This document shows, piece after piece, positions 1 through 248 of a stretch of 396 nt of DNA. The DNA comes from Escherichia coli. Its GTDB lineage: Bacteria; Pseudomonadota; Gammaproteobacteria; Enterobacterales; Enterobacteriaceae. Each line of letters opens with the position of its first letter. The first letter of the stretch is position 1. The notes below the pieces were generated by a model. The model was not told where the DNA came from. It searched no databases and saw only the letters and a list, made by a program, of their open reading frames with translations. The translations under genes and the position numbers were made by a program. Location of the stretch: assembly GCF_003334355.1 (NCBI RefSeq), contig NZ_QOWP01000109.1; one strand, 5' to 3'.

Positions 1-19
1 TATCGTGAGAGTAATTCAT
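1..19 (-). CDS. insL: IS186 transposase (InsL), 5' end only: start codon plus five codons (MNYSHD) visible; the rest lies outside the window.
   Basis: Minus-strand ATG at 19..17 followed by AAT TAC TCT CAC GAT = M N Y S H D, matching the N-terminus I recall for the IS186 transposase (MNYSHDNW...). It sits at the expected distance inside the IS186 terminal repeat. Too short to call on coding statistics; the call rests on recognising the element. Confidence 0.55.
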
Positions 20-74
20 CGGCACGTTAAATCATATCAGGCGTAATACCACAACCCTTAAGTTAGCGCTTATG
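1..74 (-). mobile_element. IS186 (IS4 family) terminal segment, partial; the element continues beyond the window start. Terminal inverted repeat at 52..74.
   Basis: Plus 52..74 caacccttaagttagcgcttatg is the reverse complement of CATAAGCGCTAACTTAAGGGTTG, which I recall as the 23-bp perfect terminal inverted repeat of IS186. The minus-strand sequence continuing inward (TGGTATTACGCCTGATATGATTTAACGTGCCGATGAATTACTCTCACGATA) matches my memory of the IS186 end leading into the transposase start. Sequence identity is from recall, not a database search. Confidence 0.8.
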
Positions 75-95
75 GGATTACTCCCCGAACAACGG

Positions 96-248
96 CTACT
101 TCTTCGGTTCGTAAGCGAGAACAGCCTTAAACTCAATATTACGTTCCTTCACCGTAAACTCACACAGCGAGTCTCCGACCAGAAGCGTAAATCCCAGCAC
201 CGTTAAACACAGCACTATGACTGCCGCAAGGGCATATTTCGTCAGCAT
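96..248 (-). CDS. hokE: Hok/Gef family type I toxin, a small membrane-depolarising peptide, 50 aa: [50 protein letters not shown]
   Basis: Minus-strand ATG at 248..246 and TAG stop at 98..96 (complement of plus cta). The translation has the Hok family hallmarks: a hydrophobic transmembrane N-terminal half, the conserved SLCE motif and a C-terminal ...AYE... tail. It is near-identical to the E. coli HokE sequence as I recall it. GGAGG lies 10 nt upstream. The IS186 end 21 bp downstream matches the known K-12 hokE arrangement. This is the C-terminal 50 codons of the 95-aa track ORF. Confidence 0.9.

Follow-up and report, generated by a model that had tools for sequence, protein, structure and literature searches.

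The closest described relatives of the locus analysed here are hok/sok of R1, a type I toxin-antitoxin module, and the hok loci of the Escherichia coli K-12 chromosome. IS186 was reportedly described 21 bp downstream of hokE by Pedersen and Gerdes in 1999. For hok mRNA, a model has been proposed in which the two ends of the transcript pair with each other, the 5′ element being called tac and the 3′ fold-back element fbi (PMC9841398). It has been suggested that hokA, hokC and hokE are inactivated by insertion elements (PMC12214031), and in K-12 hokC the insertion of IS186 has been described as disrupting fbi while the gene is still transcribed (PMC3562002). The target consensus of IS186 is GGGG(N6/N7)CCCC (PMC5009759), and the lon promoter of E. 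coli B is a site-specific hotspot for this element (PMC3446290).

We analysed a 396-nt stretch of E. coli DNA (contig NZ_QOWP01000109.1 of assembly GCF_003334355.1), hereafter the window. Both strands were read, and the window was compared with a set of 5,426 complete E. coli genomes. The window consists of three blocks: an IS186 end (1..74), native hokE DNA (75..319) and an IS150 end (320..396). Between the two IS ends, 245 bp of native DNA are left, and the toxin ORF in it is intact. As an overall explanation, we propose that insertion of IS186 into the stop-proximal hairpin of hokE severed fbi from the gene and that IS150 added a second detachment. We estimate the probability of this reading at about 0.85.

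An intact hokE gene between IS186 and IS150 ends

The hokE coding sequence (96..248, minus strand; TAG at 98..96) is intact and encodes 50 amino acids, as judged from the ORF list, RefSeq HokE and Pfam. The product matches Pfam PF01848 (HOK_GEF) over model positions 1-42 of 42 (E = 9.2e-8) and belongs by this match to the Hok/Gef toxins; the NCBIfam Hok models match below their curated cut-offs (47.7 vs 89 bits and 38.9 vs 73 bits). An upstream AUG at 284..282 (minus strand) is in frame with hokE and would add 12 residues. The annotated mokC of K-12 is in frame with hokC in the same way, and mokE is unannotated. The hokE Tyr46 codon, UAC, is an A-to-I editing site of TadA, with 40% editing in K-12 (PMC12214031). 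In the window, this codon is located at 111..113 (minus strand) in the context GCUUACGAA, 13 nt before the stop codon and near the IS186 junction. A HokE 100% identical to that of the window is encoded by a 129-kb E. coli plasmid (NZ_CP137697.1, 111673..111822), and near-identical copies are present in about 10 plasmid records.

Positions 1..74 (minus strand) are the left, transposase-proximal end of IS186/IS421, as identified by the inverted repeats, the K-12 annotation and the RefSeq CDS start. The 23-bp terminal inverted repeat CATAAGCGCTAACTTAAGGGTTG is present as an exact copy at 74..52 (minus strand), and its inverted partner closes a 1,339-bp element in REL606, K-12 and strain 300709. 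In K-12, this element is annotated as IS186B with insL2. The related loci thus have the size expected of IS186 (IS4 family), about 1.34 kb with the single transposase gene insL; the window itself contains the first 74 bp only, the insL ATG included. This ATG is at 19..17 (minus strand), position 19 is the start of the RefSeq transposase CDS, and the first six insL codons inside the window read MNYSHD. The 5′ untranslated region of insL makes up the rest of the IS186 part. With its start codon in this position, insL points in the same direction as hokE. Window positions 1..77 are 100% identical to IS186/IS421 copies on unrelated plasmids (E = 7e-31). The sequence-only reading had placed the end of the IS186 repeat at 74 and the hokE stop codon at 96..98, with 21 nt of native 3′ UTR between them. 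These coordinates hold: the TAG is at 98..96 (minus strand) and the gap between repeat and stop codon is exactly 21 nt (75..95).

The minus-strand flank of the junction at 86..75 reads GGGGAGTAATCC. A copy of the 10-bp target-site duplication, GGATTACTCC, is located at 75..84 and abuts IS186; the same sequence abuts the far IS186 end in REL606, K-12 and strain 300709, so that the direct repeat sought at the other end of the element is present. This copy accounts for 10 of the 21 nt between IS186 and the stop codon. Because base 74, the terminal base of the IS, equals the native target base, the breakpoint can be placed only to within about 1 nt. In the IS-free strain ATCC 25922, the spacer between entD and hokE is unbroken and reads ...GCGGGGATTGCTCCCCGC..., and this allele provides both the empty site and an uninterrupted hokE 3′ UTR of about 120 nt. 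When IS186 and IS150, each with one duplication copy, were deleted from the strain 300709 sequence, the product was collinear with the IS-free allele. Therefore, both IS186 and IS150 are simple insertions. The empty IS186 site in IS-free alleles is GGGGATT(A/G)CTCCCC, the core of which is spanned by the duplication. This target, GGGG-N6-CCCC, matches the IS186 consensus exactly, in agreement with the earlier proposal that the G/C-rich flank is an IS186-like target. In the RNA, the target is the stop-proximal GC hairpin of the hokE 3′ UTR (GGGG-AGUAAU-CCCC). The 21-nt remnant of the 3′ UTR (75..95, minus strand) corresponds to mRNA nt 301-321 by alignment to ATCC 25922 and by reconstruction; it retains the 5′ arm and the loop of this hairpin (GGGGAGUAAUCC, 86..75), and a private variant, at position 88, falls within the remnant.

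Strain 300709 and E. coli B REL606 share the gene order fepA, entD, IS186, hokE, IS150, ybdK. Genomes of this type are identical to the window at 395 of the 396 positions, the sole mismatch being position 88. K-12 MG1655 is identical to the window over 1..320, again except for position 88, and its IS186/hokE junction (hokE/IS186B) therefore matches base for base with the same exception; beyond this point the sequences diverge. The allele in the window is not of the K-12 type: it has IS150 at 320..396, and IS150 is absent from the K-12 hokE locus. At position 88, the window has A, and every best-matching complete genome as well as the IS-free alleles have C. With a 71-nt junction query, A at 88 was found in no complete genome carrying the IS186 junction (best match 98.6%), and an exact-pattern scan of metagenome contigs did not find the variant. 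In the native mRNA, base 88 belongs to the stem of the hairpin destroyed by IS186, and the private variant sits in what is now an unconstrained 3′ UTR remnant. Outside the window, matches to the Rfam sRNA ES036 (CssrF) above the gathering score are located between fepA and entD (L002 1681..1722, L003 905..946 and L004 5639..5680).

The right end of IS150 occupies 320..396 (minus strand); it was identified from the K-12 IS150 right end, to which window positions 320..349 are identical, from plasmid IS150 copies and from the RefSeq CDS. IS150 begins at 320 with TGTACTGACCCC..., 71 nt upstream of the hokE start codon, and its terminal repeat TGTACTGACCCCAAAAAGTTGGACA is at 320..344 (minus strand). 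The transposase stop codon is at 348..346, and the RefSeq IS150 transposase CDS ends at window position 346. The trinucleotide GGG at 317..319 is the 3-bp target-site duplication; in strain 300709, it is found on either side of the intact IS150, and the frameshifted transposase is annotated there. The repeat start TGTACTG, the 3-bp duplication and the frameshifted two-ORF transposase are those of IS150 (IS3 family). This insertion is a second disruption of the locus, by which the promoter, the 5′ pairing element and sokE are cut. In REL606, the IS150 beside hokE is itself interrupted by IS1A (L003 3346..5249), with the transposase facing away from hokE.

Upstream of hokE, a 71-nt leader remnant is left (249..319, minus strand; mRNA nt 77-147 by reconstruction and Rfam). 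It retains the ribosome-binding site GGAGG; the promoter is gone from the window, and so are the 5′ tac element and the first 76 nt. The Rfam hok/sok leader model RF01794 is matched over its full length in K-12 (84.4 bits) and in the IS-free allele (82.3 bits). In the window, the match falls to 24.4 bits (gathering score, 59) and lies partly on IS150 sequence, and in REL606 the leader was not found at the gathering threshold. The structured leader RNA of a complete hok/sok module is absent from the window. An alignment of the first hairpin of the Rfam sok model to the IS150 palindrome on the minus strand was spurious and was rejected.

On the plus strand, the first 28 nt of sokE are located at 292..319, as K-12 sokE (b4835, 607733..607792) maps to 292..351. 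The remaining ~32 nt of the ~60-nt gene, the terminator hairpin included, were displaced by IS150, and the window contains no complete Sok RNA gene with a terminator. A probable sokE promoter, TTGCCT-17 nt-TACCAT, was located by eye at 256..284 (plus strand); this putative promoter is 7-8 nt upstream of the annotated K-12 sokE 5′ end as mapped onto the window. A consensus scan for promoters and terminators flagged none in either the window or the IS-free locus and so did not pick up the sokE promoter; the sokE and hokE promoters were therefore placed by annotation, Rfam position and eye. Within the IS150 end, there is a palindrome with a 14-bp stem at 363..396 (364..396; plus strand), which is terminator-like by scan and fold and the T-run of which falls just beyond the end of the window.

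Predicted end pairing of hokE mRNA

For the folding analysis, the 5′ end of hokE mRNA was set at Rfam model position 1 and the 3′ end at the predicted hairpin, so that both are predicted ends. In the fold of the reconstructed full-length mRNA, nt 1-8 (GGGUGCCU) pair with nt 353-360 (AGGCACCU) with probabilities of 0.88-0.99. The predicted fbi element, AGGCACCU, is located at +53..+60 after the stop codon, that is, beyond the insertion point of IS186, and this predicted position is consistent with the claim of the sequence-only reading that the 3′ fold-back element is severed. As a single-sequence control, the fold is weakly discriminating: after shuffling of the distal UTR, the ends still paired in 81 of 200 cases. 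The native duplex energy was matched by 3.9% of the shuffles. When a longer, arbitrary 3′ end (+121) was used, the minimum-energy fold lost the end pairing. The duplex of the 5′ end with the native distal UTR has an energy of -15.2 kcal/mol, as compared with -7.5 kcal/mol for the 21-nt remnant, -9.9 kcal/mol for the first 120 nt of IS186 and a shuffle background of -11.5 +/- 1.9 kcal/mol. A chance complement of -17.4 kcal/mol occurs about 410 nt into IS186.

The pairing was then considered across the hok family. Besides hokE, the set comprised K-12 hokB, K-12 hokC with IS186 removed, and plasmid loci from E. coli, Klebsiella, Salmonella and Aeromonas; eight non-redundant loci were tested, with 5′ ends placed by Rfam. 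Two plasmid loci (L011 and L016) were excluded because they have no Rfam leader match, and hokA was not used quantitatively because removal of its annotated IS150 gave no clean 3-bp duplication. In each locus, the first 6-9 nt are complementary to the locus's own segment at +42..+62, with compensatory differences between loci: examples of the pairs are GGGCGC/GCGCC, GGGUGUCUG/CAGACACCC and GGCGCUU/AAGCGCC. In an exact permutation over the eight loci, the own-locus pairing was equalled or beaten in 48 of 40,320 assignments. This covariation supports pairing between the 5′ and 3′ ends. Because the native duplex is the stronger one and the covarying partner is at +42..+62, fbi probably lies past the insertion point. 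In the reconstructed and IS-free alleles, candidate tac and fbi elements are both present and complementary; both are outside the native DNA of the window.

Starting from the observed insertions, duplications, target motif, position of the fbi candidate and family-wide covariation, we propose the following course. IS186 would have transposed into the GC-rich hairpin just past the hokE stop codon, leaving 21 nt of the 3′ UTR on hokE and displacing the rest by 1.35 kb. The displaced part would comprise fbi (AGGCACCU at +53..+60) and the terminal hairpin at about +75..+102. According to the R1 paradigm, the 3′ element would pair with tac (GGGUGCCU), by which the full-length mRNA would be stable, untranslatable and inaccessible to Sok, and 3′ processing would release the mRNA from this stable closed form. 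In the case of hokE without fbi, there would be no stable mRNA reservoir for killing of the post-segregational type, and transcripts would run on into IS186. The insertion of IS150 at 320 would additionally have detached the hokE promoter and tac and cut sokE after 28 nt. The end state would be an intact toxin ORF stranded between two IS ends. What would follow for the folding, stability and translation of the mRNA is inferred from the R1 paradigm. In K-12, hokE mRNA can be detected and is 40% edited (PMC12214031), and hokE expression is reported to be higher in REL606 than in MG1655 (PMC3446290). Given the reported mRNA and expression, the term "inactivated" may overstate the state of hokE.

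Recurrent IS186 insertion at hok hairpins and rival explanations

The IS186 junction in the orientation of the window was found in 1,749 of the 5,426 complete genomes, and the empty IS186 site in roughly 3,600. The IS150 junction is present in 550 genomes, E. coli B strains included, with the hokE ORF intact. IS186 in the opposite orientation at the hokE site is present in a few hundred genomes, as estimated from rank position. The 71-nt junction query (1,909 genomes) does not separate the two IS186 orientations, and queries for the opposite orientation gave 1,059 and 2,089 genomes, both of which are inflated and were not relied on. The latter count is inflated because the target is nearly palindromic, so that window-type insertions are also matched at their entD-side junction. 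The sequence-only reading had taken the junction to be probably a known event of K-12, and this was correct: the IS186/hokE arrangement is already known from K-12, and it is widespread.

In strain ST540 (L019 1217..2555), IS186 is inverted at the hokE site, with an IS sequence that is 100% identical. The two duplication copies in ST540 differ by one base (GGATTGCTCC vs GGATTACTCC), at a position that is polymorphic among empty sites. In K-12 hokC (L005 591..1929), IS186 is in the homologous hairpin, with the target GGGGATCACTCCCC and a 10-bp duplication, 22 nt past the stop codon. IS186 is also present, in either orientation, at the corresponding position of a further chromosomal Hok/Gef paralogue, in which the sequence across the junction is about 91-93% identical. 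Among the K-12 loci, hokE and hokC have GGGG-N6-CCCC and carry IS186, and hokB (N5) and hokA (GGG...CCC) are without IS186. Because the presence of IS186 tracks GGGG-N6-CCCC, a target-site hotspot is indicated. Taken together, these insertions point to the stop-proximal hok hairpin as an IS186 hotspot that has been hit repeatedly. The coincidence of motif and hairpin gives a mechanical reason for the repeated hits at hokE and hokC, a modest point that goes beyond the literature found. In strain 181.1 (L018 279..837), a 513-bp hokE unit is located between two inverted IS186 copies, each at GGGGATTGCTCCCC, and the distal 3′ UTR, with fbi and the terminal hairpin, is present once more upstream of the hokE promoter. 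This layout suggests tandem hokE units, each hit by IS186.

Selection for toxin-antitoxin shut-off (Durrant et al.), rather than an intrinsic IS186 hotspot, has been proposed as the cause of repeated IS insertion at hok loci, and we regard this as possible, if somewhat doubtful. Four hok homologues are near mobile-element insertion hotspots in E. coli (bioRxiv 10.1101/527788), and in REL606-derived evolving lines new IS150 copies appeared beside hokC, hokE and mokB (PMC5419217). Moreover, IS150 is without a known motif that would explain insertion at hok loci, and K-12 hokA also has IS150 in its leader. However, the hokE site is an exact match to the IS186 consensus, IS186 is found at hokE in both orientations, as published hotspot behaviour predicts (PMC5009759), and among the K-12 loci only those with GGGG-N6-CCCC, hokE and hokC, carry IS186. 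Hotspot and selection are not mutually exclusive; selection and new IS150 insertions may also contribute. That the junction itself is an assembly chimera, or that the resemblance to IS186 arose by chance, is scarcely credible: positions 1..74 are IS186, the same junction is found in about 1,750 independently assembled complete genomes, and a proper target-site duplication and a full-length IS are present. Nearly as hard to accept is the idea that the fold-back element is inside the retained 21 nt or that IS186 supplies an equivalent. On paper, the 5′ end can be paired weakly and irregularly with the remnant (-7.5 kcal/mol), and the -17.4 kcal/mol complement about 410 nt inside IS186 might be taken for an equivalent, a chance one. 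However, the remnant duplex does not reach even the average of the shuffles (-11.5 kcal/mol), the covarying partner is at +42..+62 and not at +1..+21 in 8/8 hok loci, and the 5′ partner itself has been removed from the window by IS150.

Another reading gives the doubly flanked locus a new function: hokE would be read through from IS150, and the antitoxin would be a chimeric transcript from the sokE promoter, in which 28 nt of SokE are joined to IS150 antisense sequence up to the palindrome. The transposase gene of IS150 points towards hokE. On the hokE strand, the sole promoter-like site belongs to IS150 itself, at the far end of the element, and no terminator-like site separates it from hokE. 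On the plus strand, transcription from the sokE promoter could stop at the terminator-like hairpin with its T-run (363..396), which would yield a chimeric RNA of about 110 nt. About 550 genomes with both IS junctions carry an intact hokE ORF, and the higher reported hokE expression in REL606 than in MG1655 (PMC3446290) would also fit. In contrast, the chimeric RNA is predicted to fold with its SokE-derived 5′ part paired to IS150 sequence rather than single-stranded, the REL606 IS150 is itself broken by IS1 facing away from hokE, and an intact ORF over 153 nt is weak evidence for selection. We therefore consider such rewiring unlikely. The wider proposal, that hok hairpins are a built-in IS186 landing pad and that the doubly flanked hokE is rewired with a chimeric SokE-IS150 antitoxin rather than a relic, is improbable to the same degree.

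Our preferred explanation thus remains severance of fbi by IS186, together with detachment of the upstream control elements by IS150. The interpretation of the sequence-only reading is supported; the allele of the window has been disrupted twice, however, and loss of the 3′ element is only one of these events. The IS150 disruption, the hairpin-motif account of the hotspot and the private variant at 88 are what this analysis adds. The correct annotation of the window is an IS186 end, a hokE relic and an IS150 end, not a functional hok/sok module. The case documents IS-mediated decay of a chromosomal toxin-antitoxin locus of the textbook type. About one-third of complete E. coli genomes carry the IS186 insertion, a modest point that likewise goes beyond the literature found; it is relevant to the use of hokE/sokE as models, and it also bears on the reading of hokE expression differences between B and K-12 strains.

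Comparison with known hok loci and IS186 targets

The window shares its junction, duplication and IS orientation with K-12 hokE (b4415)/IS186B. However, K-12 hokE keeps its native leader, its promoter and a full sokE, whereas the window has IS150 from 320 onwards and A at 88. In K-12 hokC (gef)/IS186A, IS186 is in the homologous hairpin (GGGGATCACTCCCC), as in hokE. In contrast to the shared junction at hokE, the hokC insertion is an independent event at a separate locus, and IS186 points the other way with respect to the hok gene. K-12 hokA provides a parallel to the other side of the window: there, IS150 between the gene and its promoter splits mokA and sokA, which are annotated as pseudogenes, and this is the same kind of insertion as that at window position 320. 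However, in hokA the other end of IS150 faces the gene, the distance to the start codon is 32 nt as compared with 71 nt in the window, and there is no IS186.

The IS186 hotspot in the lon promoter has a consensus target, as at hokE. The consequence differs: at lon, the promoter is disrupted, whereas at hokE the 3′ UTR is truncated. With R1 hok/sok, the locus shares its family through Pfam HOK_GEF and, in the intact alleles, through RF01794. In an R1-like plasmid locus (L012), GGCGCUU pairs with AAGCGCC at +58, a geometry like that of hokE. R1 hok/sok is an intact module that has been shown experimentally to kill plasmid-free cells, whereas the window contains the toxin ORF and fragments of its control elements.
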